From: a bacterium
GTDB taxonomy: Bacteria; Sysuimicrobiota; Sysuimicrobiia; Sysuimicrobiales; Kaftiobacteriaceae
DNA length: 64,000 nt
Assembly: GCA_044868695.1 (NCBI GenBank)
Contig: JBIOWP010000053.1
Location: forward strand, 1-64,000
Direction of reading: 5' to 3'
Position numbers and translations under genes: made by a program. Position 1 is the stretch's first letter, and each line of letters opens with the position of its first letter. Under the pieces are notes generated by a model. It ran no database searches and was not told the origin of the DNA. It saw only the letters and a program-made list of their open reading frames with translations. Positions 34,176 through 55,774 of the stretch are shown piece after piece.

Positions 34176-35186
34176 ATGATGAACCCTGTGATGCCTAACC
34201 GCCCCGTGGAGCTGTTCTCCACCTGTCCCGCCTCTAGCCACACCGCGCAGGAGCTCTATTACGACCGTGTGGTCGAGGTGGCACGCTGGAGCGAGGAGGC
34301 CGGGTGCACGGGAATCCTCGTGTACGCGGACAACAGTCAACTCGACCCCTGGGTGGTGTCACAGATCATCGTCCAGCACACGACAGCGCTCTGCCCGCTC
34401 GTCGCCGTGCAGCCCGTGTACATGCATCCGTACGCCGTGGCCAAGATGGTGACCTCGTTCGGGCAGCTCTACGGTCGCCGGATCTACCTCAACATGGTGG
34501 CCGGCGGTTTCAAGAATGATCTTGCGGCGCTGCATGACACGACCCCCCATGATCTCCGCTATGCGCGTCTGGTGGAGTACACCACCATCATCACCCGGCT
34601 GCTTGCCGGCGAAGTGGTGAGCCACGCGGGGGAATTCTACACCGTCGACAAGCTGAAGCTTACCCCGGCGCTGCCGCCCCAGCTGCAACCCGGCGTGTTC
34701 GTGTCGGGGTCGTCGGAGGCGGGCCTCGGCGCCGCACGGACCCTCGGAGCGCTGGCGGTCAAATATCCCGAGCGCGCGGCGGAAGAGCAGGCTCCGCCCC
34801 AGGATGTCACATGCGGCGTGCGGGTCGGGATCATCGCGCGCCAGGAGAGCGTAGACGCTTGGGCCGTGGCGCGCGAGCGGTTCCCTGAAGACAGGCGCGG
34901 CCAGCTGACGCGCGAGCTGGCGACGAAAGTGTCGGACTCTGCCTGGCACCAGCAGCTCAGCGGCCTGGCCGCCGATGAGACGAGCCCGTACTGGCTTGTG
35001 CCGTTTCAGAACTACCACACGATGTGCCCGTATCTGGTCGGGAGCCACCGGCAGGTCGCAGAGGAAGTCGGCCGCTACGTCGGACTCGGCTACCGGACGT
35101 TCATTCTCGACATTCCGCGGACACCGGAAGATCTCCAGCATACCCGGCGTGTCTTCGAGGGGATCTCGCAGACCGTGGCCCGATGA
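34176..35186 (+). CDS. LLM-class (luciferase-like) flavin-dependent monooxygenase
   Basis: PLVAVQPVYMHPY, RIYLNMVAG, FVSGSSEAG, LVGSHRQVA. Confidence 0.85.
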   Translation: MMNPVMPNRPVELFSTCPASSHTAQELYYDRVVEVARWSEEAGCTGILVYADNSQLDPWVVSQIIVQHTTALCPLVAVQPVYMHPYAVAKMVTSFGQLYGRRIYLNMVAGGFKNDLAALHDTTPHDLRYARLVEYTTIITRLLAGEVVSHAGEFYTVDKLKLTPALPPQLQPGVFVSGSSEAGLGAARTLGALAVKYPERAAEEQAPPQDVTCGVRVGIIARQESVDAWAVARERFPEDRRGQLTRELATKVSDSAWHQQLSGLAADETSPYWLVPFQNYHTMCPYLVGSHRQVAEEVGRYVGLGYRTFILDIPRTPEDLQHTRRVFEGISQTVAR

Positions 35187-36793
35187 TCGAACGGCTCGAA
35201 CACTGGGTGGCGGAGCAGGGGCAGCGTCGCCCGGACGCGACGGCGGTCGTGCTCGGCGACGAGCGCCACACGTATGGCCGCCTCGAGGCCCTCTCGAATC
35301 AACTGTCCCGGTGCCTGCTGGAGCTTGGGTGCGAGCGCGGCGACCGCGTCTGCCTGCTGAGCCCCAAGTCCCCGAGTGCCATCGCGGCGATCATCGGGAT
35401 CTATAAGGCCGGCGCGATCTACGTGCCGCTCGACCCGGCCAGCCCGGCGCCACGGCTGGCCAAGATCATCGACTCCTGCGAGCCCCGATGGCTGCTTGCC
35501 GCCGGGCCGGTCACCGGTCTCATCGATGACCTCGCCGGCGACGGCGGAGGCCGGTCGTCGCTGCGCGTCGGCTGGCTCGGGCTCGACCACCCGCAGACCG
35601 GCCGGGTCCGGATGACATTCTCGGCGCGCGACCTGGAGGGCTACCCGCCGGGCCCGGTGGGAACGCCGGGTGGGCGGTCTGACCCGGCACACATCCTTTA
35701 CACCTCCGGATCCACGGGGCAGCCGAAGGGTGTCATGATCACTCACGACAATGTGCTCCAGTTCATCCAGTGGGCCGTGCGCTATTTCGACATGCGGCCG
35801 GGAGATCGAAACTCCTGCCACCCGCCGCTGCACTTTGACCTGTCGATGCTCGATATCTTCGGGACGTTTGCGTCAGGCGGCGAGCTCCACCTGGTCCCGC
35901 CCGACATCAACGTCCTGCCGAACAAACTGGCTGAATTCATCCGGACCTCGGCGCTCGTCCAGTGGTTCTCTGTCCCGTCCGTCCTCAACTACATGGCGAA
36001 GTTCGACGTGGTGCGGTTCGATGACTTCCCGGCGCTCCGGCGCCTGCTGTGGTGCGGCGAGGTCTTTCCCACGCCGGCCCTGATCTACTGGATGCAACGC
36101 CTGCCGCACGTACAGTTCACGAACCTCTACGGGCCGACCGAGACCACGATCGCCAGCAGCTACTACACATTGCCGGCGTGCCCGCAGGCGGAAACGGTGC
36201 AAGTGCCGATCGGGAGGGCGTGCGAAGGGGAGGAACTTTTCGTGCTCGATGACCGCCTGCAGCCTGTGCGGTCCGGCGATGTCGGCGAGCTCTGCATCGG
36301 CGGCGCCGGCGTGAGCCCCGGGTACTGGCGGGATCCCGACCGCACGCGCGCCGCGTTCCTCTCGCCTCCGGGGGCGGCCGACCCGGAGGCGCGGATGTAC
36401 CGGACCGGCGATCTGGCGAGGGTCGGGGACGACGGCCTAGTCTACTTCCTGGGCCGCACCGACTCGCAGATCAAGCACCGGGGGTATCGCATCGAGCTGG
36501 GCGAGATCGAGACCGCGCTGCATGCCATGGGCAGCCTGCGCGAAGTCGCCGTCGTGGGCGTCACTGCGAGCGGGTTCGAGGGGACCAGCATCTGCTGCGC
36601 GTACGTGCCCGCGGCCGGCCGGTCGCTCTCGCCCACGATGCTCCGCCAGCACTTGAGCCGGCGGCTGCCACCGTATATGTTGCCCGCGCGGTGGATGGCC
36701 CTGCGGGAGCTCCCCAAGAACGCCAACGGGAAGATCGATCGCCGCCGCCTGACTGAAATGTTCCAGCTCGAGGAGGCGGTGGGGTCCCGATGA
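35183..36793 (+). CDS. stand-alone amino-acid adenylation enzyme (DltA-like)
   Basis: YVPLD, YTSGSTGQPKG, HFDLS, NLYGPTE, YRTGDL, GYRIELGEIE, NGKIDR. Confidence 0.92.
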   Translation: MIERLEHWVAEQGQRRPDATAVVLGDERHTYGRLEALSNQLSRCLLELGCERGDRVCLLSPKSPSAIAAIIGIYKAGAIYVPLDPASPAPRLAKIIDSCEPRWLLAAGPVTGLIDDLAGDGGGRSSLRVGWLGLDHPQTGRVRMTFSARDLEGYPPGPVGTPGGRSDPAHILYTSGSTGQPKGVMITHDNVLQFIQWAVRYFDMRPGDRNSCHPPLHFDLSMLDIFGTFASGGELHLVPPDINVLPNKLAEFIRTSALVQWFSVPSVLNYMAKFDVVRFDDFPALRRLLWCGEVFPTPALIYWMQRLPHVQFTNLYGPTETTIASSYYTLPACPQAETVQVPIGRACEGEELFVLDDRLQPVRSGDVGELCIGGAGVSPGYWRDPDRTRAAFLSPPGAADPEARMYRTGDLARVGDDGLVYFLGRTDSQIKHRGYRIELGEIETALHAMGSLREVAVVGVTASGFEGTSICCAYVPAAGRSLSPTMLRQHLSRRLPPYMLPARWMALRELPKNANGKIDRRRLTEMFQLEEAVGSR

Positions 36794-37299
36794 GGCTGCT
36801 CCCGCTGGAGACGCCGCAACTCATCGCGCGCGTCGCCGACTGGCTCAACGACCCCGGGAATGCGCAGTGGCTCGATCTCGGCGGCGGGCCCGTGACCCCT
36901 GCGCTCGTCAAGATCATGGCGCAGCGGGACACCAACGTGATGCGCGCCTTCACCGCCGACGACGACGAAACGCCGATCGGCGTCGTGGCGTTCCAAAATG
37001 TCGACCGGCGCTGCAAGACCGCGACGATCTGGATCGTGCTCGGCGACAAGACCCACGGCGGTCGACTCTACTCCATTCGGGCCACGTCAAAATTGCTGAC
37101 GTTCGGATTTCAGGAGCTCGGACTTACGGCGGTCAACACTTGGATCGTGGAACATAACCGCTCTCAGGCGATCGCAAAGCGCCTCCATTTTCGCTACGTG
37201 GGGCGGATGCGCCAGTGCCACTACATCGATGGCCAGCCGTTTGACCGCCTGTGGTTCGATCTTCTCGCCTCCGAACACCGGGAGCGCAACGGTGGCTGA
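36790..37299 (+). CDS. GNAT N-acyltransferase (RimJ/RimL-like)
   Basis: IGVVAF..VD, FGFQELGL, N.SQAIAKRLHF..VG..RQ. Confidence 0.75.
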   Translation: MRLLPLETPQLIARVADWLNDPGNAQWLDLGGGPVTPALVKIMAQRDTNVMRAFTADDDETPIGVVAFQNVDRRCKTATIWIVLGDKTHGGRLYSIRATSKLLTFGFQELGLTAVNTWIVEHNRSQAIAKRLHFRYVGRMRQCHYIDGQPFDRLWFDLLASEHRERNGG

Positions 37300-37558
37300 C
37301 GTCGCCGCGGTCGAAGCACGCATCACGCAGATCTTTGCGCGGGCGCTCCATCTGGAGATTCCCGCAGCCGATCTGGATCTGTTCGAGACGGGAGCGATCG
37401 ACTCGCTCGCGTTTGTGGAGTTCCTCCTGCATCTGGAGCGTGAGTTTGGGATCAAGGTCTCGCTGGAGGATCTGGAACTCGACAGCTTCAGGACGATTCA
37501 GCGGATCGCCCAGTATGTGACCGCGCGGAACGGGACGACACCTACCGCATCCCGGTGA
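37292..37558 (+). CDS. carrier protein 1 (DltC-like)
   Basis: DLDLFETGAIDSL phosphopantetheine motif, LEREFGI. Confidence 0.88.
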   Translation: MADVAAVEARITQIFARALHLEIPAADLDLFETGAIDSLAFVEFLLHLEREFGIKVSLEDLELDSFRTIQRIAQYVTARNGTTPTASR

Positions 37559-37562: not shown

Positions 37563-38042
37563 ATGGATCCTGAAGCGCGCAAGAAGACCCTCCGGATGTT
37601 CAGCAACGGGATGTACGTCGTGACGTCACGCAGCGGGGAACACTATGGCGCGGCGACCGTCACCTGGATGTCGCAGGCCTCATTCAGACCTCCCCTGCTC
37701 ATGACGGCGATCCGCAGGGACAGTAACGTCTTTCGCTGCCTCGCCGAGAGCCGACTGGCCGCAGTGCACGTCTTGGGACGCGGCCAGCAAGAGATGGCGG
37801 CGAAATTCTTCCGGCCCACGAGAGTGGCGGATGGCCTGCTCAACGGCGAGCCCTTCGTTGAAGGCTCGACCGCCGTCCCGATTCTGACGAACACCCCCGC
37901 GCATGTCGAGTGCACAGTGCGCCAGATCATCGACGCCGGCGGGGATCATGCGGTCGTCATCCTGGAAGTGGCGGACGCGGTCTGCCGCGTCCGGATGCCG
38001 GTGCTCACAATTGCCGACTCGCCCTGGGAGTACGGAGGCTAG
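37563..38042 (+). CDS. flavin reductase (DIM6/NTAB family)
   Basis: GMYVVT, SQASFRPPL, GDHAVVI. Confidence 0.88.
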   Translation: MDPEARKKTLRMFSNGMYVVTSRSGEHYGAATVTWMSQASFRPPLLMTAIRRDSNVFRCLAESRLAAVHVLGRGQQEMAAKFFRPTRVADGLLNGEPFVEGSTAVPILTNTPAHVECTVRQIIDAGGDHAVVILEVADAVCRVRMPVLTIADSPWEYGG

Positions 38043-39146
38043 GTGGTCATGCCGGCGGGCCGGGTGCGCGGATTCGAGGAGCGCGATGTCCTCCATGTCA
38101 CCGAGCTGCACCGGCGCGTGTTTCCGGCGCTCAACGGCCATGGCGCACCTCCGGAAGCGTACCACGCGTACTTCCGGGAGATCTTCTTGACCAATCCATT
38201 GAGCGGCGGCGAGTCCCCATCGCTTGTGTACGAGGAGGGCGGAGACGTCGTCGGCTTTCTTGGCGTGATCCATCGGCAGATGAGCCTGCGCGGTCAGCCG
38301 GTCCGCATGGCGACCAGCTCCCAGTTCATCGTCGATCCAGGCCGGCGCGCCACGCTGGCCGGCATCGAGCTGGTCCGGGCGTTGCTCGCCGGGCCTCAGG
38401 ATTTCACCCTGGCCGATGAAGCGATCGACCTCACGCGCAGGCTTTGGGAGGGTTTGGGGGGGGCCACGGTGCCGCTGTACAGCCTGTCTTGGGTCCGAGT
38501 CCTCCGGCCCTTTGAGTTTGCCGTACGACGCTGGGGTGGAGGTCGGCGCCTCGCGTCCGCCTGGCTCCCGGCGTCTCATCTGGCCGACGCGGTGGCGACC
38601 CGTCTCCCCGGCACTCCATTCCGGCCGCCGGCCTCCGCGCTGCGAGGGGAAGAGCTGGACGGCGAGGCGCTGGCCGCATGCCTGGCTGAGTTTCCACAGG
38701 ACCGCGCTCTCCGGCCTGCGTACGACGGCCGGGCCGCGGCGTGGCTGCTGGAGATCCTGGCGCGCAAGCCGGGCAGCGGGCCGCTGCGCAAGACGCTCGT
38801 TCGAGATGCTGGGGGCGAGATCGCCGGTTGGTACCTCTACGCCGCGACACGCGGGGGGATCGCTGAGGTCATCCAGCTCGGCGCCCGAGAGGGGTCGATC
38901 GGTGCAGTCCTCGATCACCTGTCTGCGCAGGCCTGGCGGGACGGGATCGTGGGTTTGATTGGACGGCTCGATCCGCGGTCCGTGGGAGAGTTCACCGCCC
39001 GGAGGTGCTTCTTCCACCATCGGGGGTATTGGACGCTGGTGCACGCGAGGGACCCGCGGGTGTTAACTGCCCTCCAGCGCGGCGACGCGTTTGTGACGCG
39101 GCTCGAGGGTGAGTGGTGCCTGCGCTTTCAGGTGGGGGCGGCCTAA
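38043..39146 (+). CDS. GNAT-fold transferase 1 (paralogue of 54683-55774)
   Basis: VVGFLGV, SQFIVDP.RR; shares many motifs with the second copy. Confidence 0.7.
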   Translation: MVMPAGRVRGFEERDVLHVTELHRRVFPALNGHGAPPEAYHAYFREIFLTNPLSGGESPSLVYEEGGDVVGFLGVIHRQMSLRGQPVRMATSSQFIVDPGRRATLAGIELVRALLAGPQDFTLADEAIDLTRRLWEGLGGATVPLYSLSWVRVLRPFEFAVRRWGGGRRLASAWLPASHLADAVATRLPGTPFRPPASALRGEELDGEALAACLAEFPQDRALRPAYDGRAAAWLLEILARKPGSGPLRKTLVRDAGGEIAGWYLYAATRGGIAEVIQLGAREGSIGAVLDHLSAQAWRDGIVGLIGRLDPRSVGEFTARRCFFHHRGYWTLVHARDPRVLTALQRGDAFVTRLEGEWCLRFQVGAA

Positions 39147-40328: not shown

Positions 40329-40675
40329 AACTGACGGTCCTGCCCAATGACTTGCGCGACAGCACGGTGGCGGAGCGCGACACCCACGATCGCGCTCCCG
40401 CGAGGAGTGCATCCGTCCCGCGATGGCGCGAAACACCTGTGCTCAAGCGACTCGCCGTGCTCTGGGAAAAGTGGAAGGTTATCGCCCGCCGCATCGGCGA
40501 TTTCCAGGCTCGAGTGCTGCTGTCGATCTTCTACTTCACCGTCCTGGCGCCGTTCGCCATCGGCGTCACGCTGTTCTCCGACCCGCTGCGGATCCGTCCG
40601 ACCGGCGGGTCCGGGTGGACGGAGCGCCCCGTGCCCACCGACGATGCGGCCGCGCAGGCCGGCAGGCAATTCTGA
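40325..40675 (+). CDS. SxtJ-like small membrane protein
   Basis: WK.IARRIGDFQARVLLSIFYFTVLAPFA...DPL...RQF. Confidence 0.65.
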   Translation: MKLTVLPNDLRDSTVAERDTHDRAPARSASVPRWRETPVLKRLAVLWEKWKVIARRIGDFQARVLLSIFYFTVLAPFAIGVTLFSDPLRIRPTGGSGWTERPVPTDDAAAQAGRQF

Positions 40676-40676
40676 C

Positions 40677-42452: not shown

Positions 42453-42466
42453 GGGGTGATACCGTC

Positions 42467-42637
42467 ATGAGGAGCCTGCTGGCCAGATTCTCGATCGCCG
42501 GAGAGCTGCTGACCTTCCTCTGGAAGGCGCGGCTGTGGTGGATGGTCCCCGTCGTCGCCATGCTGCTGCTCCTGGGGGGGCTCATCATCCTGGCGCATAG
42601 CTCCGCCATTGCGCCATTCATCTACACACTCTTTTGA
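42467..42637 (+). CDS. SxtK/DUF5989-like small membrane protein
   Basis: WWMVP...SAIAPFIYTLF C-terminus. Confidence 0.8.
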   Translation: MRSLLARFSIAGELLTFLWKARLWWMVPVVAMLLLLGGLIILAHSSAIAPFIYTLF

Positions 42638-43845
42638 TGAGCCGGTACGGAGAGAACGGTGGACGCGCGGCCGCGGATATCGCGGTCCGCGCTCCGGCGG
42701 GTGTGGGCGGTCCCCTGCGGGTGGAGGTGATCGAGGATGTTGGACGCTTCCGCGCGCTCCGGGACGAATGGACCGCGCTCCTCGAGCGCAGCGCAGCGGA
42801 CGGCCTCTTCCTTACCTGGGAATGGCTGTTCACGTGGTGGAGACACCTGTCCGGCGGCGCCCGGCTTCACGTCCTCGCCGTCTGGTCGGATGGGGAGATG
42901 GTCGGACTCGCGCCGCTCCTCCTCCGGCGGCGGCGGGCGCTGGAGGCGCCATTTCCGGTTTTGGAATTCCTGGGCGGAACCGCTGGGTCCGACTACCTGG
43001 ACCTGGTTCTACGATCCGGATCAGAATCGCAGGCTGTGGATGCCCTCGCCGATTATCTCGGCGCCGAGAAGCTCGCACTTCGCCTGACGCAGGTCCGCCC
43101 CGGTTCGTCCGCAGCTGTGCTTGCCGCCGAGCTGGAGCGCCGCGGATGGTGGCTTGACGCCGTCAGCACGGAAGTGTGCCCGCTCGTGACGTGGCCGGCG
43201 CCGTCGTGGGACTCCTATCTGGCGACCCTCACGTCGAAAGACCGGGTCGACTTCCGTCGGCGTCTCAACAACCTGAGCAAGCAGTTCGAGGTCCGCTTCG
43301 AACAGGCCGAAACGGAGGAGGGGCGTCGAGAGACGCTGCGCGCGTTGTTCGCGCTCCATGACAGCCGGTGGCGGGAGCGAGGAGGCTCCACGGCCCTCCA
43401 CACCCCCGCGCTCCGGTCCTTCCATGACGAGGTGACCGCTCTGGCGCTGACGCGCGGGTGGCTGCGACTCTACCTGCTGGTCCTCGACGGCCAGCCGGTC
43501 GCGGCACAGTATAGCTTCAGATATCGCGGGACATTCTACGACTACCAGAAGGGGTTCGACCCGAGCTACTGCCGGCACGGCATCGGGCTCATCACCGTCG
43601 GGCTGACAATCAAGCGCGCGATCGAGGAAGGCGCAGCTGAGTATGACTTCCTCCATGGCGCCGAGCCATACAAGTTCCGGTGGGCAGGCCAGGTGCGTGA
43701 ACTGAGCCGGCTCGAGCTTTTCCCTCCTGGCGCGCGTGGGGCCACCTACCGGCTGCTTGTGGCGGGGGGCAGCAAAGCGAGAAAGGCTGTGCGAAAGGTC
43801 GTGGGCGATGTTCTGGCAGATCGTCTCACCGGTCGCCGGGGATGA
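42634..43845 (+). CDS. GNAT family protein (CelD/BcsL, Acetyltransf_6-like)
   Basis: FLTWEWLFTWW, SDYLD, YDFLHGAEPYKFRW. Confidence 0.85.
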   Translation: MMSRYGENGGRAAADIAVRAPAGVGGPLRVEVIEDVGRFRALRDEWTALLERSAADGLFLTWEWLFTWWRHLSGGARLHVLAVWSDGEMVGLAPLLLRRRRALEAPFPVLEFLGGTAGSDYLDLVLRSGSESQAVDALADYLGAEKLALRLTQVRPGSSAAVLAAELERRGWWLDAVSTEVCPLVTWPAPSWDSYLATLTSKDRVDFRRRLNNLSKQFEVRFEQAETEEGRRETLRALFALHDSRWRERGGSTALHTPALRSFHDEVTALALTRGWLRLYLLVLDGQPVAAQYSFRYRGTFYDYQKGFDPSYCRHGIGLITVGLTIKRAIEEGAAEYDFLHGAEPYKFRWAGQVRELSRLELFPPGARGATYRLLVAGGSKARKAVRKVVGDVLADRLTGRRG

Positions 43846-44924
43846 ACTGGGTGCGAGTCTTCAAGGAAACAGCCTACACGGCGAGCGCTTGCCTGGGCCT
43901 GACACGGGCGGCGATTCGGTGTGTCCGCCGGAAGGCCCTCGTCCTCGAGTATCACAATGTCAACGCAGGCGACTCGGATCCGATCCGCAACCTCGACGGC
44001 CTTCACGTGCGCGTCTCTCAGTTCGAGCGCCAGATGGACCATCTTGCGGCGCACTACCACGTGGTACCCCTGGACGATCTCCTGGATGCGTCCGCCCAGA
44101 TGCGGCGGGGAAAACCGCGCGCGGCGATCACCTTCGACGACGGCTACCGGGACACATACACCTACGCCGTTCCGATTCTTCAGCGACTCGGCCTTCCGGC
44201 CACGGTATTCATCGTCACGGACTTTCTGGTTTCCGGCGGTTCCCCCTGGTGGGACCGTCTCTGGGCCATGGTCGCTGCGGCCCGCAGCCCGCTACATCGG
44301 ATTTCCGTCCATGCTGCGGCACAGGAGCTCCCGATCGTCACGGTGCGTGACAAGGAGACCGCGGTGCGAGAACTGACGCGTGCGCTCCGTGAGCTCCCGA
44401 CCGCGGTGCGCGAGGCTGAGCTCAGCCGGCTTGCCGCCGAGGTGGGCGTGGACCAGGGCGAGATGAAGACGCATGCTCCCATGTCCGTATCCGAGCTCCG
44501 CGCGATGGTTGACGCGGGAATCACGGTGGGGAGTCACGGATGCTCGCATGATTCATTCCATCAACTCGGCCGCGAGCGCCTTCGGGAAGAGCTCGCCGAG
44601 TCCAAGCAGGTTCTGGAGTCGCTGACCGGCCGCCCGGTCACGTGGCTCTCCTACCCCTATGGAGATTTCTCAGCAGATGTGGCGCAGATGGCGGCTCAGG
44701 CCGGGTATCACGGAGCGGTGACAACAATCGAAGGGCTGAACGATGGGGTGCCCGACCCCTACGCGATCCGCCGCTTGGGGGTGGACGATCGTATGAGCTT
44801 CGCGCACTTCCGTGTCGTGGTGTCGGGATTGAGGGACGTGCTCAAAGGTCGCCTGCGGACCGACCGCGGTCCCGTCGCGCGCCGCGCCATCCAGTACGCT
44901 CAGGATGAAACCCGCAGCTCGTGA
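43842..44924 (+). CDS. polysaccharide deacetylase (NodB family)
   Basis: ITFDDGYRD, VGSHGCSH, SYPYG. Confidence 0.9.
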   Translation: MNWVRVFKETAYTASACLGLTRAAIRCVRRKALVLEYHNVNAGDSDPIRNLDGLHVRVSQFERQMDHLAAHYHVVPLDDLLDASAQMRRGKPRAAITFDDGYRDTYTYAVPILQRLGLPATVFIVTDFLVSGGSPWWDRLWAMVAAARSPLHRISVHAAAQELPIVTVRDKETAVRELTRALRELPTAVREAELSRLAAEVGVDQGEMKTHAPMSVSELRAMVDAGITVGSHGCSHDSFHQLGRERLREELAESKQVLESLTGRPVTWLSYPYGDFSADVAQMAAQAGYHGAVTTIEGLNDGVPDPYAIRRLGVDDRMSFAHFRVVVSGLRDVLKGRLRTDRGPVARRAIQYAQDETRSS

Positions 44925-46441
44925 CACGCCTCGCCGGTTTTCAACAGACGCAGCGGCTCGACGTTGGGTCCCGACCGGTGCTGCTCCTGACCGCGGGTCG
45001 GGCGATGGCATTCGCAATGACCTTCGCCACCCCTCTCGTGCTCGCGAGGGTGTTCGATCAGGCCGCGTTTGGCACGTACAAGCAGCTGTTCCTCGTCTAC
45101 GGGACGATTGCGGCGATCGCCCAATTGGGGATGGCCGACAGCCTGCTCTACTTCCTGGCGTCAACGCCGGATCGCGGCGGGCGGTACGTCCTGAACAGCC
45201 TCCTGGCCCTGGCCGGCAGCGGGCTGGCGTGCCTGGGGCTCCTCGCGGTTGCTGGTCCGGTGCTCGCGCACTGGCTGGGCAATGGCATGCTGTCGGGGCT
45301 GTCGGGACTGCTCGGCGCGTACGTCCTGCTGATGCTTCCCGCCACGGTCCTGGAGATTGTCATGATCGCGCGCAGGCACTATGGGAATGCGGGGCTGGTG
45401 TACGGCCTTTCCGATCTGGTCAAGGCGGTCGCACTGGTCGTCCCAGCCGTCGTGACCCGGAGACTAGAGTGGCTGCTGGCTGGCGGAGTGGCGTTCGGCG
45501 CGATCCGGCTTGGGGGGACGCTCTTGTACCTCGCCCGAGAGTATGCGGGCGAGTTGCGAACCGACCGGATGGCGCTGCGGCGGCAGTTGGCCTATGGCCT
45601 CCCTCTCCAGCTCGGCGTCGGCTTGTGGATTCTGGTGCAAAGTCTCCACTACTACATCGTCGCTGCGGGCGTGGACGCGGCCACGTATGCGATCTACGCG
45701 GTCGGCTGCCTCCAGATTCCGATCATCGACATGCTGTCCACGCCGTCCAAGAACCTGCTCACGGCGCGCATGCGAGAGGCAGTGACCGCGGACCAGTCCG
45801 GTGCCGCGCTCGCGCTCTGGCACGATACAACGCGCAGGCTCGCGCTCGTCTTCTTCCCGCTCGCCGGGCTCCTGGTCGCGACGGCCCGAGACTTGATCCC
45901 GGTGCTCTTTACGGACCGATATGCCGCGAGCATTCCGATCCTTATGGTCTGGTCACTGATCGCACCAGCGTACGCGGCGCAGCCGGATGGCGTGCTGGCC
46001 GTCTACGCCGAAACCCGTGCAATCGCCGTCGTGCACGCGATCCAGCTGCTGCTCATGACGGTCTTGGTGCTCGCGTTCATACGGCTGTTCGGACTCGTCG
46101 GCGCGGTGCTGGGAACGGTGCTCGTCATTTGGGTCGGCAAGGTCCTCATGCTCCTCCGCGCTCGGCGCCTCTTGCGTGTGACACTCGCCGCGCTGCTGCC
46201 CTGGCGGAGTCTCGGCATCATCTCGGGCGCCGCCGCCGCTTCCGCTCTGATCGCCGTGGAGGTCAACGCACACCTGGCAGTGGGGCAGGTGCCGGCCCTG
46301 ATCCTCACATCGGGCGCCTGCGTGGTGACGTACGTGGGGATCCTGGTGCTGTGCGGATTCATTGACCTCGAGGCGCGACCCGGCCGGGGTCTAATCGCGG
46401 TCTCGCCGTTGGCCGTGAGGGGAGGCAGTCATGAGCCTTAA
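44921..46441 (+). CDS. oligosaccharide flippase (Wzx-like)
   Basis: About 12-14 TM segments; PLVLARVF...FGTY, AIYAVG, LFTDRYAAS. Confidence 0.85.
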   Translation: MTRLAGFQQTQRLDVGSRPVLLLTAGRAMAFAMTFATPLVLARVFDQAAFGTYKQLFLVYGTIAAIAQLGMADSLLYFLASTPDRGGRYVLNSLLALAGSGLACLGLLAVAGPVLAHWLGNGMLSGLSGLLGAYVLLMLPATVLEIVMIARRHYGNAGLVYGLSDLVKAVALVVPAVVTRRLEWLLAGGVAFGAIRLGGTLLYLAREYAGELRTDRMALRRQLAYGLPLQLGVGLWILVQSLHYYIVAAGVDAATYAIYAVGCLQIPIIDMLSTPSKNLLTARMREAVTADQSGAALALWHDTTRRLALVFFPLAGLLVATARDLIPVLFTDRYAASIPILMVWSLIAPAYAAQPDGVLAVYAETRAIAVVHAIQLLLMTVLVLAFIRLFGLVGAVLGTVLVIWVGKVLMLLRARRLLRVTLAALLPWRSLGIISGAAAASALIAVEVNAHLAVGQVPALILTSGACVVTYVGILVLCGFIDLEARPGRGLIAVSPLAVRGGSHEP

Positions 46442-48304: not shown

Positions 48305-50412
48305 GGCTGGAACGCGTGCTACAGATGCCGGTCACCGAGATTGCCGGTCGGGGACGTCAGGAGGCGGCGAAATGGCTGGACCGTGTGGCCGCCGTCGCGA
48401 GTACGCGGCCGGCCCGCATCCACCCGCCGAGCGTGGGTGTCGATCCCACACGCTTCTTCGAGGGCGCCGCGAGCCCGGACACGACGGCGTTCGTAATCGC
48501 GCAGCTCCCTGGGAGTGTTGATCGGGCCATCGTCACGGCGGACGCGGTCTGCCGGGGCCGGTTCGATCTCCTGGGCTACCGGGACCTGATCTTCGGCGAT
48601 CCCGTGGACTGGCACCTGGATCCCGTCTCGCGCCGCCGTGCGCCCCTGGTGCACTGGAGCCGCCTCAATCCCCTTGACGCGGCCGCCGTCGGGGACAGCA
48701 AAGTGATCTGGGAGTTGAACCGCCACCAGTGGCTCCTGCATCTCGGGCAGGCGTACCGAATCACCGGGGACGAGCGCTACGCAGACACTTTTGCCCGCTA
48801 CGTGCGCGACTGGACGCGGGCCAATCCCACCGGCCTGGGCATCAACTGGGCGAGCAGCCTCGAGGTCGCGTTCAGGATGATCTCCTGGTGTTGGGCCTTG
48901 ATGTTGTTTCACGGCTCCCCCACGCTGTCCGGCGGCCTCTTTGGCCAGATGCTCATTGGGATCGAGGCCCATGCCCGCCACGTCGAGCGGTATCTCTCGC
49001 ACTACTTCGCGCCCAATACCCATCTGACCGGCGAAGCGCTCGGGCTCTTCTACGCCGGTGTGCTCTTTCCAGACCTGCGCCGTGCAAAACGGTGGAAGGA
49101 ACTTGGGACGGGAATTCTTGTCACACAGTGCGACCGCCACATCCTGCCGGACGGCGTGTACTTTGAACAGTCCACGTGGTATCAACGCTACACGGCTGAC
49201 ATCTACCTTCACTTTCTGATCCTGGCCGCACGGAATGGCGTCGGTGTTCCGGATACGGTACGAGACCGGGTCTGTCGGCTGCTTGACTTCCTTGTCGCCG
49301 TTCGCCGCCCCGACGGATCGATGCCGCTCATCGGCGACGCCGATGGGGGGTGGCTCCTCCCGCTGGTGCCGAGGGACGCCGGCGACCTCCGAGGCACGAT
49401 GGCACTGGCGGCGGCGTTCTTCGCCCGCCCCGACTATGCCTGGGCGGCCGACGGCCGGGCCCCCGAAGTCTTGTGGATACTGGGGGCGGCCGGGCAGAAA
49501 GCGTTCGCGGCCCTCGATCCGCGGCCGCCGGATGCGGCGCCGTCGCGGCTCTTCTCTGACGGCGGCTATGCCATCATGCAGACCGGATGGGAGCGGGAGG
49601 CCCACCAGCTGGTCCTCGACGCCGGACCGTTCGGTGCGGTCAACGGCGGGCATGGGCACGCGGACCTTCTGAGCCTTCAGTGCTCGGTCTTTGGAGAGCC
49701 CTTCCTCGTCGACCCGGGCACGGATGGCTACACGGTGGACCCACAGTGGCGCGATTTTTTCCGCGGCACTGCGGCTCATTCGACCGTGCGGATAGATTCC
49801 CGTCCGCAGGCCATCCCTGGCGGGCCCTTCAAGTGGGAATCGCGGCCTCGGGCCCGCCTGCGTCGATGGGTGTCCACGCAGACCATGGACTTTGCCGACG
49901 CGGAGCACGACGCTTACCACCGCCTTCCCGATCCGGTGACGCACCGGCGCCGGGTGCTCTTCGTGAAGCCCCGGTACTGGGTGGTCGTCGATGACCTCGT
50001 CGGAGCGAGCGAGCACCGGGTTGACCTCCAGTTCCAGTTCGCGCCAATGGATGTGATCGCGGATTCGACCCTGTGGGCCCGCGCCGTTGGCCGGCGAGAT
50101 CGAGGCCTGCTGATCCGGGCGTTCTCGTCCGCAGCCCTGACGGCCAAGGTGTGGGAAGGCCAGGTGGGCCGGCCGGGAGGCTGGGTATCGCCGGACTACG
50201 GCCGGCGCCATCCGGCGCCAGTCCTGACGTACTCCACTTTCGCACGCCTGCCCCTGAGGGTCGTGACACTCTTCCTGCCCGCGGACAACCCTTCGGCGCC
50301 CCTACCCCGGGTGTCGGGATCGTGCGGCGGCCCGGCAGACCCGACGGTGCTCGTGTTCGATGACACGGGCGAGGCGGTGGTCGTAGGGGACGACGATATC
50401 CATGTCGCATGA
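48301..50412 (+). CDS. heparinase II/III-like (alginate-lyase fold) protein
   Basis: WELNRHQW, GINWASSLE, NTHL, GHGHADLL, LVDPGT, AAHSTV. Confidence 0.88.
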   Translation: MRLERVLQMPVTEIAGRGRQEAAKWLDRVAAVASTRPARIHPPSVGVDPTRFFEGAASPDTTAFVIAQLPGSVDRAIVTADAVCRGRFDLLGYRDLIFGDPVDWHLDPVSRRRAPLVHWSRLNPLDAAAVGDSKVIWELNRHQWLLHLGQAYRITGDERYADTFARYVRDWTRANPTGLGINWASSLEVAFRMISWCWALMLFHGSPTLSGGLFGQMLIGIEAHARHVERYLSHYFAPNTHLTGEALGLFYAGVLFPDLRRAKRWKELGTGILVTQCDRHILPDGVYFEQSTWYQRYTADIYLHFLILAARNGVGVPDTVRDRVCRLLDFLVAVRRPDGSMPLIGDADGGWLLPLVPRDAGDLRGTMALAAAFFARPDYAWAADGRAPEVLWILGAAGQKAFAALDPRPPDAAPSRLFSDGGYAIMQTGWEREAHQLVLDAGPFGAVNGGHGHADLLSLQCSVFGEPFLVDPGTDGYTVDPQWRDFFRGTAAHSTVRIDSRPQAIPGGPFKWESRPRARLRRWVSTQTMDFADAEHDAYHRLPDPVTHRRRVLFVKPRYWVVVDDLVGASEHRVDLQFQFAPMDVIADSTLWARAVGRRDRGLLIRAFSSAALTAKVWEGQVGRPGGWVSPDYGRRHPAPVLTYSTFARLPLRVVTLFLPADNPSAPLPRVSGSCGGPADPTVLVFDDTGEAVVVGDDDIHVA

Positions 50413-51985
50413 GGGTGGGGCCGAGATGTATACCATCCGCGACGTGTTGACGCTGCAGTCCGAGAATCTGCGGGCTGATCACATCGCTGTGGTGGACGGG
50501 GTCAGGCGCCTGACTTACGGAGAGCTGCAGGCGTGCGCCCGGCGCTTCGGCACGCTACTCACAGAAGCAGGCGTGCGCAGGGGTGATCGCGTCGCCATCT
50601 TCTTGCCACGCTCGGTTGACGCGGTGACCGCGCTGTTTGGGACGTGGTTCGCCGGCGGCGTGGCGGTCGTGATCAACGAGCACCTGCGCGCGCAGCAAGT
50701 CAACCACGTCCTCGCCCACAGCGGGGCCGGGTGCGTGGTGACCGACAGCAGACAACTGCGCTCTCTGTCACATCCCCTGCGGGGTTCGGTGACTCTTGTC
50801 AACGTCGACCAGGTCGAGCTGCCGCATGCGCCACACGCTCCGGAGCCGGTCATCGGAGCAGATCTCGCCCTGTTGATTTACACGTCGGGCTCGACGGGGC
50901 TGCCCAAAGGCGTGATGGTGAGCCACGATAACCTGCTGGCCGGCGCCCGCATCGTGTCGGACTACCTGCGCCTCACCGAGCGGGACGTGATCCTGAGCTT
51001 GATGCCGTTCAGTTTCGACTACGGCCTCAATCAACTGCTGACCGCGGTCTGGGTGGGGGGGACGCTGGTGGTTCAGCGATCGTTGTTCCCCCCGGACATT
51101 TGCGCCGCGCTTGAGCGGGAGGAGGTCACGGGAGTGGCGGCTGTGCCGACGCTGTGGCTGCAGCTGACCGGCAGACAGTCACCCTTCCTCCACCGGGCGT
51201 TGCCGCGGCTGCGGTATCTCACCAACACCGGTGGACGGCTGCCCGAGCGCACCGTGCGGTCGATCCGGGCCGCCCATCCGCACGTTCAGGTGTACCTGAT
51301 GTACGGGCTGACGGAGGCATTCAGATCTACCTACCTCCCACCGGACCAGGTGGACCTTCGGCCATCGTCCATCGGAAAGGCGATCCCCAACGTGGAGATC
51401 TGCGTGATCAACGAGGAAGGCAGGCCCTGTGCGCCCGGCGAGGTCGGCGAGCTGGTGCATCGCGGCGCAACCGTGACCCTGGGGTACTGGCGCGACCCCG
51501 ACGCCACCGCGCGGGTATTCCGGCCTCACCCTCTGGAGCCGTTCCGCAACGGGAGCCGGGAGCTCGTCGTCTACTCCGGCGACCTCGTGAAGATGGACGG
51601 GGATGGGTACCTGTACTACGTCGGACGGCGGGACCAGTTGATCAAATCACGCGGGTTTCGCGTCAGTCCCGAGGAGATTGAACGCTGCATCGGGTCGTCG
51701 GGTCTCGTCACCAACGTGGTGGCCTTTGCGGAGCCCAGGGACGAGGGGGACAGCGAGATCGTGATCGCCGTGCTTCCGAACAGCCCAGACGCCTTCCGCG
51801 AAGAGGCCCTGCGGGAGTTCTGCAACGTCGAGATGCCGGAGTACATGCAGCCGCAGGTGATCTGGCAGATGGACCAATTTCCGCTGACCACATCCGGGAA
51901 ACCGGACCGCGGCAGAATACAGGAGATGTACCGTGCGCGACACGAGCGACCTATACAAGTTGCTGGAACCGCAAGAACGGCTTGA
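50402..51985 (+). CDS. AMP-forming acyl ligase (resembles the exosortase-A-locus acyl-CoA ligase)
   Basis: YTSGSTGLPKG, SFDYGLNQL, MYGLTEAFRSTYL, SGDL, GFRVSPEEIE, SGKPDR. Confidence 0.88.
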   Translation: MSHEGGAEMYTIRDVLTLQSENLRADHIAVVDGVRRLTYGELQACARRFGTLLTEAGVRRGDRVAIFLPRSVDAVTALFGTWFAGGVAVVINEHLRAQQVNHVLAHSGAGCVVTDSRQLRSLSHPLRGSVTLVNVDQVELPHAPHAPEPVIGADLALLIYTSGSTGLPKGVMVSHDNLLAGARIVSDYLRLTERDVILSLMPFSFDYGLNQLLTAVWVGGTLVVQRSLFPPDICAALEREEVTGVAAVPTLWLQLTGRQSPFLHRALPRLRYLTNTGGRLPERTVRSIRAAHPHVQVYLMYGLTEAFRSTYLPPDQVDLRPSSIGKAIPNVEICVINEEGRPCAPGEVGELVHRGATVTLGYWRDPDATARVFRPHPLEPFRNGSRELVVYSGDLVKMDGDGYLYYVGRRDQLIKSRGFRVSPEEIERCIGSSGLVTNVVAFAEPRDEGDSEIVIAVLPNSPDAFREEALREFCNVEMPEYMQPQVIWQMDQFPLTTSGKPDRGRIQEMYRARHERPIQVAGTARTA

Positions 51986-53108
51986 CCGTCTCATCACGTC
52001 GACGTTCAAGCGCTTCGGGCCCCGGGCGGTCGATTTGTCCTATGCGAACCCGGCCGAGGGGCCAGACGCCCAGGTGCGTGGGGCGCTCGCGCGTGCGGCC
52101 GCTGAGATGGACGGGCTGGCGTTTCAATACACCCCGTACGGCGGGAACACCGTGACCCGCCGCGCGATCGCGTCCCAGTTGAGCCGGGAGTACGAGCTCG
52201 CTTTCCACTACCGCGATGTCATCATGACCACCGGCGCCATGACGGCATTGAACGTCGTGTTCCACGGGCTCTGCGGGCCGCAGGACGAAGTCATGGTGCT
52301 TACGCCCTGCTGGCAGGACTACCCGCTGTACCTTCGCAACCTAGGCGTGCCCTTCTCCTTCGTGGGCCTCAAAGACGACAAACATCTCGACATCGACGGC
52401 ATCGGCCGGGCGCTCAATGAGACGACCAAGGCAGTGCTCCTCAGCCAGCCGTGCTGCCCGACGGGGGTGCTGTACGCCCAGGACGAGCTCGATGCCCTGT
52501 CGGCGCTGCTGGCCGCCGCGGAGGCTCGATTCGGCACGACGATCTACCTGATCAGCGACGAGGTCTACCGCCACATCGTCTGGAGCAGGAAACCATTCTA
52601 CAGCCCGTTGCTGAGTTATCCCCGCAGTCTCAGCATCTATTCATTTGGCAAGGCCCTCGCGCTTCAGGGACAGCGTATCGGGTACATCGCGGTGTCGCCC
52701 CGCGCCCCCGAGCGGAGCGAGGTCAGGGAACTGCTGCTGCGATGCGTCAGGCTCATGGGCTTCTGCACGCCGACCAGTTTGATGCAGCGTGCCGTGTGCG
52801 ACCTGCTGGACTACAGGCCGCGCCTGGACGGGCTGGCGGAAAAGCAGGCGTTTGTGAGGCGCATGATCGGCGGCTACGGGTATCAGGTGTGCGACGCCGA
52901 CGCGGCCTTCTATGTCTATGCCAGGTCGCCGGTCCCCGACGACTTCACGTTCGCTGAGCAGCTCGCCTCGCGGGGGGTGATGGTCATGCCGTCGACACTG
53001 TTCCACGAACCCGGGTTTGTGCGCCTGTCCTTAACCGCCCGGGTCGAGGCGATCGAGGCGGGACTGCCGGCGTTCGCCAGCGTCCTCCAGCCCCGCGTGG
53101 CAGTGTAG
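51933..53108 (+). CDS. PLP-dependent aminotransferase class I/II
   Basis: ISDEVY, SFGKALALQGQRIG, FVRLS. Confidence 0.88.
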   Translation: MRDTSDLYKLLEPQERLDRLITSTFKRFGPRAVDLSYANPAEGPDAQVRGALARAAAEMDGLAFQYTPYGGNTVTRRAIASQLSREYELAFHYRDVIMTTGAMTALNVVFHGLCGPQDEVMVLTPCWQDYPLYLRNLGVPFSFVGLKDDKHLDIDGIGRALNETTKAVLLSQPCCPTGVLYAQDELDALSALLAAAEARFGTTIYLISDEVYRHIVWSRKPFYSPLLSYPRSLSIYSFGKALALQGQRIGYIAVSPRAPERSEVRELLLRCVRLMGFCTPTSLMQRAVCDLLDYRPRLDGLAEKQAFVRRMIGGYGYQVCDADAAFYVYARSPVPDDFTFAEQLASRGVMVMPSTLFHEPGFVRLSLTARVEAIEAGLPAFASVLQPRVAV

Positions 53109-53110
53109 CG

Positions 53111-54442
53111 ATGCTTCAGTCCACGCTGCGCGTCCGGAACTTCTGCTGGCAGAGGGGATCGTTTGCGCCCTCCGTGAACGACACAGCGCCGGCCGAACTG
53201 GCAGAGTGGACAGGGCCGTTTTCGCTGGCCGTCGTGGGGCCCCAGGGCCGCGTGACGCTGGCGCGGGACCGGCTGGGCATCAACAAGCTGTTCTTCGCCA
53301 TCCACGAGACGGGCAGGGTGGCGGGCGCAAACTACCTGGTTGATCTCGTGGGGCAAGGGATCCCCTGTGAGGCCATCTACTCCGTGCCGGCCGGGCATGT
53401 GGTTGAGGTCGACGTAGGAGACCGGGCCGTATCGTCGAGCCGCTTCGCGGGGACCGATCCCGTACCACAACCAGGCGGCGCCGGAGTGAAAGACATTGCA
53501 CGGGGTATCCGCAGGGACCTCGAGGGCTGGTTCGCCCGGCTCGCCGAGCAGTTCACCGGGCGGAGGATCTGCGTCTGCCTGTCCGGAGGTCTTGACAGCG
53601 GTGTGATTGCGGCCCTGGCGAGGGAGTATTTCCGGGACGTCACCGCCTACACCTATGGGTATATGGAGGCGGGCGCAGTCCACAGCGAGGACGTGAGGTA
53701 TGCGGAGCGGCTGGCCCACGCGCTGCGGATCCCGTTCCGGCTCGTGGCCGCGTCGGCCGAGGACGTGCACGCGGCGGTGGATGACGCCGTGTGCTATGGG
53801 CAGGACTGGCGGGACTTCAACGTACACTGCGCCATCGTGAACGAGATCCTGGCCCGCGCAATCCGCCGCGACGCGGAGGACAGCGGCGCCGGATTGTCCC
53901 CGTTGATCCTGACAGGCGACCTGGCCAACGAATTTCTTGCCGACTACGCGGCGGTCTCGTACCGTGGCCGCGAGTATTACCGCCTGCCCAGGCTGAGTCC
54001 CGGGGAGTTGCGGTCCGTGCTGATTCAGGGCCTGGACGCGGGAGACCGGGAGGTGGGCGTCTTCAACCACCACGGGCTTGAGGTCATTCAACCGTACGGC
54101 CTCGTCGTTGACCGGTATCTGGCCCTGCCGGGATCGTTTCTCGGGCGGGCGCGGGCCAAGCAGGCGCTGGGCGGCGCGATCGCGGGGGATCTGCTCCCGC
54201 GCTTTGTCTTTGATCGCGTCAAGGTCAGAGCCCAGATCGGTAGCTCGACGGAGCCTACAGGGATTCTCCCGGTGCTCATCGATGCCGGCTTCGATGCGGG
54301 AAGGTTGCGCGAGGTCTTTTGCCGGCTGTTCAAGGTCGAGGACCAGGCGTTTCTCAGCAGGTTTGTCCGCGCCGGGCGGTACCGTGCCATGAACCAATTT
54401 CCTCTCAAGGAGACCTGGATCGATGGCTATCTCGCAGCCTGA
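53111..54442 (+). CDS. asparagine-synthetase-like ATP-dependent amide ligase without the catalytic N-terminal Cys
   Basis: LARDRLGINKLF, LSGGLDS, LTGDLANE; N-terminus MLQST. Confidence 0.75.
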   Translation: MLQSTLRVRNFCWQRGSFAPSVNDTAPAELAEWTGPFSLAVVGPQGRVTLARDRLGINKLFFAIHETGRVAGANYLVDLVGQGIPCEAIYSVPAGHVVEVDVGDRAVSSSRFAGTDPVPQPGGAGVKDIARGIRRDLEGWFARLAEQFTGRRICVCLSGGLDSGVIAALAREYFRDVTAYTYGYMEAGAVHSEDVRYAERLAHALRIPFRLVAASAEDVHAAVDDAVCYGQDWRDFNVHCAIVNEILARAIRRDAEDSGAGLSPLILTGDLANEFLADYAAVSYRGREYYRLPRLSPGELRSVLIQGLDAGDREVGVFNHHGLEVIQPYGLVVDRYLALPGSFLGRARAKQALGGAIAGDLLPRFVFDRVKVRAQIGSSTEPTGILPVLIDAGFDAGRLREVFCRLFKVEDQAFLSRFVRAGRYRAMNQFPLKETWIDGYLAA

Positions 54443-54686
54443 TGTGGCCCGCACGATTGAGACGTTTATCCGGAAGGAATTCCGCGTCATACCGGACGAC
54501 CCCCAGTTCTCGTGGGACGCGCATCTGTTCGAGTTGGGTTATGTGGACTCCGTAGGGGTCGTCGAGCTCATTGCCTTCATCGAATCCACCTTTCGGGTCA
54601 AGCTCGCTGACGAGCATATCTTCAGCGAACGCTTCACGACCATCAACGGGATCAGCAGCGTCGTCAGTGTGTGCACGGTGGGATGA
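54423..54686 (+). CDS. carrier protein 2
   Basis: LFELGYVDSVGVVELIAFIE..F. Confidence 0.88.
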   Translation: MAISQPDVARTIETFIRKEFRVIPDDPQFSWDAHLFELGYVDSVGVVELIAFIESTFRVKLADEHIFSERFTTINGISSVVSVCTVG

Positions 54687-55774
54687 GCGTCGTCAGGCCG
54701 TTCGTCGCGGCTGATATCCCACACGTCGCAGACTTGCATCGCCGGGTCTTTCACACTGCGGAGCCCACCGTCCCGGGATGGATGGAGTCCTACCAGAGGT
54801 ATTTCTTGGATGTGTTCCTCAGCAACCCGCTGGGTGATGACACGCTGACCTCGCTCGTGTGCGAGGACTCGTCTGGAACGATCGTCGGCTTCCTCGGGGT
54901 GGCGCCGCGGCGGATGGTGTTCAAAGGCCGGCCGATACTGGCGGCGGTATGTTCGCAGTTCGTGGTCGATCCGGCCCGGCGCGGGCAGGTGGGGCTTCGC
55001 ATGGTGAAGCACTGCCTGGGCGGTCCGCAAGACCTCTCGTTGACCGACGAGGCAGAGGACGGCACCGGGAAGATCTGGCAGTGGTGTGGCGGTGCCACGG
55101 CGCTCTTATACAGCATGCACTGGATCCGGCCGCTGCGGCCGGCCCGGGCCGCGCTCGCCGTCCTCCGCAGGCGGACGCCTCTCGCGTGGGCCGCCGGCAT
55201 GTCCGCGCCCGCGGCACGGGTCATAGATGCCCTCGCCACCAGGGCATCGTGGAATCCGTTTCGCCTCTCGCCGACTCAGGGATCCACCGAAGACCTGGAC
55301 GAGGCGATGCTGCCGGCCTGGCTTCCTGAGCTGGCGGCTGCGCGTACGCTTCGTCCCGCCTATGACGATCAATTGGTGAAGTGGATGCTGCAGCGGGCGG
55401 GTCAGCGGCGGGGGCACGGGCAGTTCCGGAAGGTCCTGGTGCGGGACGACGCGCGCGGCATCGCGGGATGGTACCTGTACTACCGCAACCCCGGCGGGTT
55501 CAGCGAGGTGCTGCAGGTGGCGGCGAAGCCGCACACCGTCCGGTCGGTCCTGGACCATCTCTTCGATGATGCCGCGCGCCAGGGCGCCATCGCCCTGACC
55601 GGACGGCTCGATCCGGCCTTTGCAGCGGAGCTGTCAGAGAAGTCCTGTCTCTTGCACCGCCATGGCTATTCAATGCTCATCCACTCGAGCCACCCCGAAT
55701 TGTTGGACGCCGTACTCACCGGCGATGCCTTCCTGACGCGACTTGAGGGCGAGTGGTGTCTGCGGTTCCAATAA
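54683..55774 (+). CDS. GNAT-fold transferase 2 (paralogue of 38043-39146)
   Basis: IVGFLGV, SQFVVDPARR, DAFLTRLEGEWCLRFQ. Confidence 0.7.
   Translation: MSVVRPFVAADIPHVADLHRRVFHTAEPTVPGWMESYQRYFLDVFLSNPLGDDTLTSLVCEDSSGTIVGFLGVAPRRMVFKGRPILAAVCSQFVVDPARRGQVGLRMVKHCLGGPQDLSLTDEAEDGTGKIWQWCGGATALLYSMHWIRPLRPARAALAVLRRRTPLAWAAGMSAPAARVIDALATRASWNPFRLSPTQGSTEDLDEAMLPAWLPELAAARTLRPAYDDQLVKWMLQRAGQRRGHGQFRKVLVRDDARGIAGWYLYYRNPGGFSEVLQVAAKPHTVRSVLDHLFDDAARQGAIALTGRLDPAFAAELSEKSCLLHRHGYSMLIHSSHPELLDAVLTGDAFLTRLEGEWCLRFQ

Follow-up and report, generated by a model that had tools for sequence, protein, structure and literature searches.

We analyzed a 64,000-nucleotide stretch of bacterial DNA (hereafter, the window; contig JBIOWP010000053.1 of assembly GCA_044868695.1, Kaftiobacteriaceae), in which positions 34176-55774 hold two gene cassettes, each combining a stand-alone acyl carrier protein (ACP1, ACP2) and an adenylating enzyme (A1, A2) with a transferase of a single family (T1, T2; collectively T). 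A sequence-only reading had proposed that the cassettes build acyl or aminoacyl groups on their carriers and decorate an exopolysaccharide (EPS). The gene content it listed was borne out, all eleven genes lying on the plus strand (Table 1), while its starts were corrected to the likely ones for A1 (35183), ACP1 (37292), T1 (38049), and T2 (54683). Cassette 1 consists of a luciferase-like flavin monooxygenase (LLM), A1, a RimJ-type GNAT, ACP1, a flavin reductase, and T1; cassette 2 of A2 (an AMP ligase), a class I pyridoxal phosphate (PLP) enzyme, an AsnB-like ligase, ACP2, and T2. Both do sit in an EPS cluster. The region is part of a single co-oriented operon whose first gene, near 28.4 kb, is of RfaH/NusG type and whose end, according to open reading frame (ORF) calling, lies ~5.5 kb beyond the window. 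The operon encodes a co-polymerase, tyrosine kinase, priming transferase, Wzy, Wzx, GT4 enzymes, UDP-sugar dehydrogenase, and epimerase. With the Wza- and Wzi-like genes upstream on the opposite strand, every component of a Wzx/Wzy-dependent EPS locus (co-polymerase, kinase, priming transferase, Wzy, Wzx, glycosyltransferases, and export protein) is present. The 11 kb separating the cassettes include genes that the sequence-only reading had left out of account, namely those for an SGNH protein, a carbamoyltransferase, a third GNAT (PF13480), and a deacetylase. As had also been stated, Pfam detected no condensation or thioesterase family across the 50 window proteins scanned.

Table 1. Features of the two cassettes and of the surrounding EPS operon (window coordinates).
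Feature	Position	Strand	Basis
LLM, SsuD/MsuD-related	34176..35186	+	PF00296; orthologs 57-66% identical in same cassette
A1, stand-alone amino-acid adenylation enzyme	35183..36793	+	TIGR01733 above cut-off
RimJ-type GNAT, optional	36790..37299	+	PF13302; 15/30 A1 loci
ACP1, Ser in DSL motif	37292..37558	+	PF00550, E 1.7e-13
Flavin reductase, optional LLM partner	37563..38042	+	PF01613; 8/30 A1 loci
T1, tandem-GNAT transferase of NMT/Eis topology	38049..39146	+	AF2 model, fold searches, conservation
A2, VinN-type beta-amino-acid adenylating enzyme	50402..51985	+	Best pocket match 3WV4 (VinN)
Class I PLP enzyme, AspAT fold	51933..53108	+	PF00155; catalytic Lys and carboxylate-binding Arg in 40/40 homologs
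ATP-dependent amide ligase, AsnB/beta-lactam-synthetase fold	53111..54442	+	PF00733; fold searches
ACP2, Ser in DSV motif	54423..54686	+	PF00550; similar carrier fused to T in P0063
T2, paralog of T1	54683..55774	+	4-base overlap with carrier gene
EPS core: chain-length determinant, tyrosine kinase, priming sugar transferase, Wzy/ligase	29101..34152	+	TIGR03007 above cut-off, TIGR01007, PF02397, PF04932
Third GNAT, rival candidate for sugar transferase	42634..43845	+	PF13480; joined to T homolog in P0143
Polysaccharide deacetylase without strong membrane segment; candidate acceptor-amine source	43842..44924	+	PF01522, hydropathy
Wzx-type flippase	44921..46441	+	PF13440

The two transferases are clear paralogs (45% identity over 370 columns, E 4e-101), and the motifs by which the sequence-only reading had related them (LHRRVF, IAGWYLY, GRLDP, and others) are visible in their alignment. 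Their sole Pfam match was a weak one to PF13527 (22.1 and 20.4 bits against a cut-off of 25), and no NCBIfam model matched at 1e-5. A T profile found nothing below E 0.001 among PDB sequences; it retrieved 2,636 representatives (50%-clusters) at E 0.001 and 1,398 at 1e-30, and an ESM Atlas search returned only hypothetical or weak GNAT clusters. The family has no curated name, and we found no characterized member, in keeping with the earlier assessment, nor any description of the family or the cassettes in a literature search whose coverage excluded subscription journals and supplements, where O-antigen clusters with carrier genes may be described.

Structure prediction bore out the anticipated GNAT fold. 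In a model built from a 119-sequence alignment (pLDDT 94, pTM 0.91), T is a tandem GNAT, its single chain comprising two GNAT domains. Human NMT headed the Foldseek matches (E 2.5e-13), and VIA-align placed yeast NMT at the top (2p6e; Z 20.0, 312 residues aligned, rmsd 5.2), followed by Eis-type proteins (Z 18-20) and other tandem GNATs. Identity to NMT and Eis is 9-14% (14% for Eis), and T, at 365 aa, is too short for a sterol-carrier domain. Conservation was assessed in 146 sequences, i.e., T1, T2, and 144 of the best 150 representatives with 330-430 aa. The CoA loop is degenerate, its canonical form (Q/R-x-x-G-x-G/A) being found in 12/146 in domain 1 and in 0/146 in the checked stretch of domain 2. 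Acidic residues occupy position 123 in 143/146, position 353 in 144/146, and position 355 in all 146. The structural alignments stop at model residue 356 opposite yeast NMT 455 and at 355 opposite Eis 402, these being range ends rather than a residue-level superposition, and the chain runs a median of 7 residues beyond W356. Acidic residue 355 stands at the aligned end. In NMT the carboxylate of L455 is the catalytic base, and characterized GNATs acylate amines (PMC4964394). Since the alignments end opposite this base and GNATs act on amines, E355 may replace the terminal carboxylate of NMT, and the acceptor of T would be an amine. No membrane segment was found in T1 or T2; T is soluble and would act in the cytoplasm. 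An amphipathic, cationic insertion (154-185) might conceivably bind the membrane, which we put no more strongly because its hydrophobic moment, given the window length of that measure, is not clearly above that of other helices.

Carriers accompany T in most loci, as the sequence-only reading would have it. The best 80 of 259 confirmed genome matches to T fell into 78 distinct loci (L058/L059 and L068/L069 being near duplicates; L, locus; P, protein), and a carrier profile built in this analysis had a match in 62 of them, compared to three carriers in the entire host genome (2.59 Mb, 95% complete). Those three are ACP1, ACP2, and AcpP, and the genome has one AcpS-type phosphopantetheinyl transferase; T1 and T2 are the only T-family members of the genome, and each lies <0.5 kb downstream of a carrier, which is more than chance. 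T occurs in 3/30 related genomes, as expected for an accessory surface locus. Carrier and transferase are also joined by nature: P0063 is an ACP-T fusion, and the polyketide synthase (PKS)/nonribosomal peptide synthetase (NRPS) proteins P0208, L077, and L070 have carrier-T as their last domains, where a release domain would stand, with no thioesterase detected in them by Pfam. Two further T proteins are joined to a PF13480 or ATP-grasp domain (P0143, P0151). The proteins at L077:2861-11089 and L070:8627-16531 have the order A-T-KS-AT-T-C-T (T in such domain strings being the thiolation domain), and the T-family domain that closes them in the expected thioesterase place is a candidate new release domain.

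In cassette 1, the nearest solved structures to LLM are alkanesulfonate monooxygenases. The A1 pocket was nearest to PltF (7e-23) and then to DltA (8.5e-16), each identical at 6/10 pocket positions, and is conserved among 28 homologs, 25 of which have the pocket Cys described for DltA (PMC11253843). Judged by these residues, A1 probably activates a small amino acid (Pro-, Ala-, or Gly-sized); it scored 292.6 against the cut-off of 559.85 of the DltA equivalog model TIGR01734 and 305.6 against 476 for a second. The LLM-A1-ACP-T unit also occurs in Gemmatimonadota, Nitrospirota, Rokubacteria, Acidobacteriota, Binatia, Planctomycetota, and Burkholderiales metagenome-assembled genomes, with LLM and A1 at 53-68% identity. 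Thirty loci with an A1 ortholog contained T in 29 (a circular count, as these loci were mostly fetched through T) and LLM in 26; besides the RimJ-type GNAT and reductase (Table 1), three had a formyltransferase, three had KASIII and a 3-hydroxyacyl-CoA dehydrogenase (3HCDH), and 12 had no capping gene. The RimJ-type GNAT likely N-caps the carrier-bound amino acid, and the variable genes may supply acetyl, formyl, or 3-hydroxybutyryl caps. Surface sugars are known to bear N-acyl-aminoacyl groups, N-acetyl-aspart-4-yl and N-(3-hydroxybutyryl)-alanyl among them (PMC10609480), and we count the match of the optional genes to these groups in favor of a sugar acceptor. The formyltransferases retain the catalytic Asn-His-Asp pattern; those encoded 3' of the carrier were considered as replacements of T and rejected, since they keep this pattern and T is also present in L039 and L055. 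In one decayed or rearranged cassette (L004:8059-9593), A1 is cut to ~130 aa and a partial carbamoyltransferase comes next.

In cassette 2, A2 resembles VinN. The VinN type is defined by Asp230, a bulky residue 231, Ser/Thr299, a loop one residue shorter, and Arg331; the A2 homologs had D in 29/29, Y in 28/29, S or T in 29/29, R in 29/29, and the short loop in 29/29, and Lys330 of VinN is Phe in A2. On these residues, A2 likely loads isoaspartate, i.e., aspartate activated at its beta-carboxyl, giving isoaspartyl-ACP2. A2 scored 550.6 bits against TIGR03098, below the cut-off of 592.35. The AsnB-like protein is no glutamine-dependent asparagine synthetase B: it is without the first 41 AsnB residues, the glutaminase Cys among them (model residue 1 aligns to AsnB residue 42), and its family consensus also begins without this nucleophile. 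Its model matched AsnB (Z 29) and beta-lactam synthetase (Z 28.4) similarly, the latter heading the Foldseek matches.

An independent query with the AsnB-like family (best 80 of 214 metagenome matches) found a carrier directly 3' in 60/64 loci with room, the PLP gene in 53/58, and A2 in 35/38, while T was present in 14/34 loci with 1.5 kb downstream and in 23/80 overall. Where T was absent, the next gene encoded a C-A-T-TE NRPS (L141, L142, L144), a hexapeptide acyltransferase (L130, L137), another GNAT (L126), a formyltransferase (L119), or an unrelated protein; in cassette-2 locus L136, a tandem GNAT distantly related to T was found (hhalign 92.6%). The genes concerned (L136:4838-5950 and L067:15986-17188) form a second unnamed family without Pfam match, standing beside similar cassettes and distantly related to T (profile comparison 92.6%). 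Both cassettes are conserved units across phyla, and they were found together elsewhere (L011 and L015 on one contig, L107/L108, L090, L100, L136).

A related ligase appears in L173 (G031:C20), a true member of the XrtA-associated family TIGR03098 (641 bits) that shares the beta-amino-acid loop motif of A2 and lies beside an ACP, a probable PLP decarboxylase, and a GNAT-like gene, which suggests that this ligase/decarboxylase pair makes beta-alanyl-ACP. A2 differs from it in falling under the family cut-off, in its partner enzymes, and in that no exosortase was found in its own genome.

The proposed EPS neighborhood held for part of the family. GT or Wzx/Wzy-type genes were present in 17/21 LLM-cassette loci of at least 13 kb, compared to 4/47 21-kb windows of the host genome; kin among these loci are not independent, and detection relied on homologs of a limited gene set. 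PF13480/FemAB genes lay near 12/21 of the same loci. In a quick tree, a 99% branch separated T1, T2, and all LLM-cassette members from the members of the LuxE loci and those fused to an NRPS. The LuxE/LuxC clade, of Acidobacteriota (AMP ligase, ACP, LuxE/LuxC, methyltransferase, and FabA), had glycan genes in 2/23 loci. Because of this difference and the tree split, the EPS link is one of the clade containing T1 and T2, not of the whole T family, and the claim of an EPS decoration system stands as conserved modular cassettes with EPS enrichment in that clade, without EPS specificity of the family. Since the tree contained only two T2-type rows, we do not claim cassette-specific co-evolution of T1 and T2. 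The loci of Terriglobia and relatives (L003, L010, L020, L026, L031, L034, L056, L062, L067), with AMP ligase, ACP, a LuxE-LuxC fusion, methyltransferase, FabA, and 1-3 T copies, face a stand-alone condensation domain, an A-T protein, and a P450, have no glycan genes, and make up a separate, unexplained pathway.

Homologs of T were also found in rhizobia. A plasmid tblastn search with T gave 104 records at ~30% identity, 76 from Sinorhizobium and others including Mesorhizobium. In Mesorhizobium ciceri, T adjoins nadE-ligase-ACP-asnB, with a GT2 gene nearby. The S. meliloti cluster comprises two T genes along with flippase-like, O-antigen ligase, GumC, deacetylase, and GT genes and is ~11 kb away from a nadE-ligase-ACP-asnB operon; both T proteins retain the terminal Glu, the ligase has the full VinN Lys-Arg loop, and one T gene overlaps the flippase-like gene. 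An 825-codon open frame that seemed to fuse flippase and T was rejected, its upstream part being a shadow frame. From pSymB gene order, the ligase/ACP operon is likely SMb20650-51, although the records bear other locus tags. SMb20650 is co-transcribed with SMb20651, acylates this carrier in vivo, and is not a long-chain acyl-CoA ligase, the function of the carrier being left open in those reports (PMC7232532, PMC5686131). One record titled pSymA (L169; CP090105.1) carries minCDE and the T cluster found on pSymB in strain 2011, a possible mislabeling, and its ligase spans two open frames.

The butirosin 4-amino-2-hydroxybutyrate (AHBA) side-chain module (BtrI, J, K, O, V, H, G) fits the cassettes better than the Dlt system does. 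It shares a stand-alone carrier, ligase, PLP enzyme, flavin monooxygenase of the LLM superfamily (BtrO; PMC2922099) with reductase, and a transferase that places the unit on a sugar amine (PMC13707489, PMC2922099), a transfer that is predicted here; the carrier, ligase, carrier-acting PLP or flavin enzymes, and transferase likewise stand in one unit, and LLM may be the analog of BtrO. It differs in that BtrH is papain-like whereas T is a tandem GNAT, in that activation here would be by ANL adenylation enzymes, and in context, an antibiotic rather than a Wzx/Wzy EPS. VinN/VinL/VinO and bolagladin BolO/BolC/BolN share the residues that bind aspartate as a beta-amino acid, a freestanding ACP, and a PLP enzyme. 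In cassette 2, however, the PLP enzyme is of class I AspAT fold and not BtrK-like, the glutaminase-less AsnB-like ligase is added, and the unit usually ends at T instead of a PKS. NMT and Eis share with T the tandem GNAT and a chain end folded back to the cleft (Z 18-20) and differ by the degenerate CoA loop of T and the side-chain acid that would stand in for the terminal carboxylate.

The Dlt system, to which the sequence-only reading had appealed, proved a poor analog. DltABCD and AlmEFG do combine a stand-alone A enzyme and carrier for envelope decoration, and A1 has the DltA pocket Leu and Cys. However, the cassettes contain carrier-bound tailoring genes, A1 lies far under the DltA cut-offs, no MBOAT DltB, DltD, or lipid A acyltransferase was detected among the window proteins scanned with Pfam and NCBIfam, and a soluble T would be cytoplasmic. 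The Caulobacter HfsH/HfsK pair likewise joins a deacetylase to a tandem GNAT; we take the third GNAT of our cluster to be HfsK/Fem-like, and presumably it, not T, corresponds to HfsK. That pair is proposed to re-acylate amines unmasked by deacetylation, HfsK being Fem-like with an open donor and, in the available part of that report, no mention of a carrier (PMC5362036). Overall, the cassettes probably combine a butirosin-like carrier logic with an undescribed offloading family acting on EPS and are not a Dlt system.

From the genes, folds, motifs, linkage, and fusions described above, we infer the reactions, acceptor, and carrier specificities as follows. Each cassette would load an amino acid onto its own carrier and tailor it there, after which T would take the completed acyl group off the carrier thioester and pass it to a free amine of the EPS precursor in the cytoplasm, before Wzx flips it. 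In cassette 1, A1 would load a small amino acid, LLM and reductase would oxidize it, and the RimJ-type GNAT would cap its amine. In cassette 2, A2 would activate the side-chain carboxyl of aspartate to give isoaspartyl-ACP2, and the PLP enzyme and AsnB-like ligase would alter the amine and the free carboxyl (to an amide or lactam). The acceptor amine, on a lipid-linked or nucleotide sugar, would most likely come from the deacetylase, because this is the sole amine-forming gene found in the cluster, in the manner proposed for HfsH/HfsK. We favor this acyl transfer to an EPS-precursor amine with moderate confidence: the carrier linkage, the ACP-T and PKS/NRPS-T fusions, the GT or Wzx/Wzy-type genes of most LLM-cassette loci, the degenerate CoA loop, the invariant acid 355, the VinN residues of A2, and the rhizobial T pair all argue for it.

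Several points tell against it. Sixteen of the 78 T loci have no carrier (four of these are cut close upstream of T; of five such genomes checked, two have a VinN-type ligase with ACP elsewhere), and T is missing from 20/34 cassette-2 loci with room. Most loci were obtained through T, which makes the T counts in them circular. Four of the 21 LLM loci (L007, L009, L018, L058) are without GT and Wzx/Wzy-type genes, L018 having a UDP-GlcNAc epimerase, and the LuxE/LuxC clade is poor in them; the cassette-2 loci of at least 9 kb have glycan genes in 4/8 with T and 5/14 without it (to which an unfiltered run of the search adds a Wzy for L107 and a Wzx for L096). Only 10/21 LLM loci have a deacetylase or DegT gene nearby, the role of sugar transferase could belong to the cluster's third GNAT, and the comparison with the NMT/Eis folds gives end points only.

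The products of the cassettes may instead be small molecules or aminolipids that T releases onto a small amine or lipid, the cassettes being only passengers of the EPS loci. Such products would suit the LuxE/LuxC clade, the NRPS genes that follow cassette 2 in three loci, the NRPS-terminal T domains, the absence of glycan genes from L007, L009, and L058, and an insertion that could bind membrane. We nevertheless consider them unlikely, as in several phyla cassettes of the T1/T2 clade share the orientation of, and often overlap, the wzy, GT, and wzx genes among which they are embedded, and T overlaps the flippase-like gene in rhizobia. That T is itself a tailoring enzyme, acylating the carrier-bound amine and leaving attachment of the unit to sugar to the PF13480 GNAT or an AsnB-type amidotransferase, seems to us quite improbable. 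The A1 loci without another capping gene, the PF13480/FemAB genes near LLM loci, the T-PF13480 fusion P0143, and the 2-3 T copies of some loci would fit, but the CoA loop is degenerate, 17/30 A1 loci have separate capping genes beside T, and T closes PKS/NRPS proteins in which Pfam detects no thioesterase. Acylation of protein lysines or N-termini, for instance on exosortase-type surface proteins, is very doubtful: NMT and Eis are the nearest folds and several cluster genes resemble XrtA-associated families, but the identity to NMT/Eis is very low, the 95% complete genome has no exosortase match (PF09721), and the neighborhoods have no conserved target gene.

Other parts of the window are of separate interest. 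Positions 39147-42640 encode an SGNH protein with an N-terminal membrane segment, a 116-aa membrane protein, a carbamoyltransferase, and directly 3' of it a short hydrophobic ORF, which suggests a second decoration module (O-carbamoyl or O-acyl). A heparinase II/III-like protein without signal segment, an Ig-repeat protein, and a beta-helix protein are encoded within the operon at 48301-50412 and 55753-61133. On its 5' side (25542-28019) lie genes for choice-of-anchor P and post-COAP-1 domain proteins and a 313-aa protein without family match, relatives of which are located inside the cluster in L008. Two long minus-strand ORFs without Pfam match (18151-20262 and 22953-25301; 704 and 783 aa) may be shadow frames or unknown proteins.

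The chemistry of the amino-acid and N-acyl-amino-acid groups carried by bacterial surface sugars is well established, but for many of these groups the enzymes responsible for assembly and attachment are not known. More tentatively than transfer to EPS itself, it is possible that T is a widespread carrier-dependent N-acyltransferase family of NMT fold, serving as the common exit of interchangeable mini assembly lines (LLM-type, isoaspartyl-type, LuxE/C-type, and whole PKS/NRPS lines) that decorate EPS, which would give SMb20651 its job and provide N-acyl-aminoacyl substituents without tRNA. If true, a carrier-fed, modular route with one recognizable transferase family would make such substituents predictable from gene content, and NRPS/PKS enzymology would gain a new release/transfer domain. 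The homologs in Sinorhizobium and Mesorhizobium bring the question from uncultured soil bacteria to genetically tractable strains.

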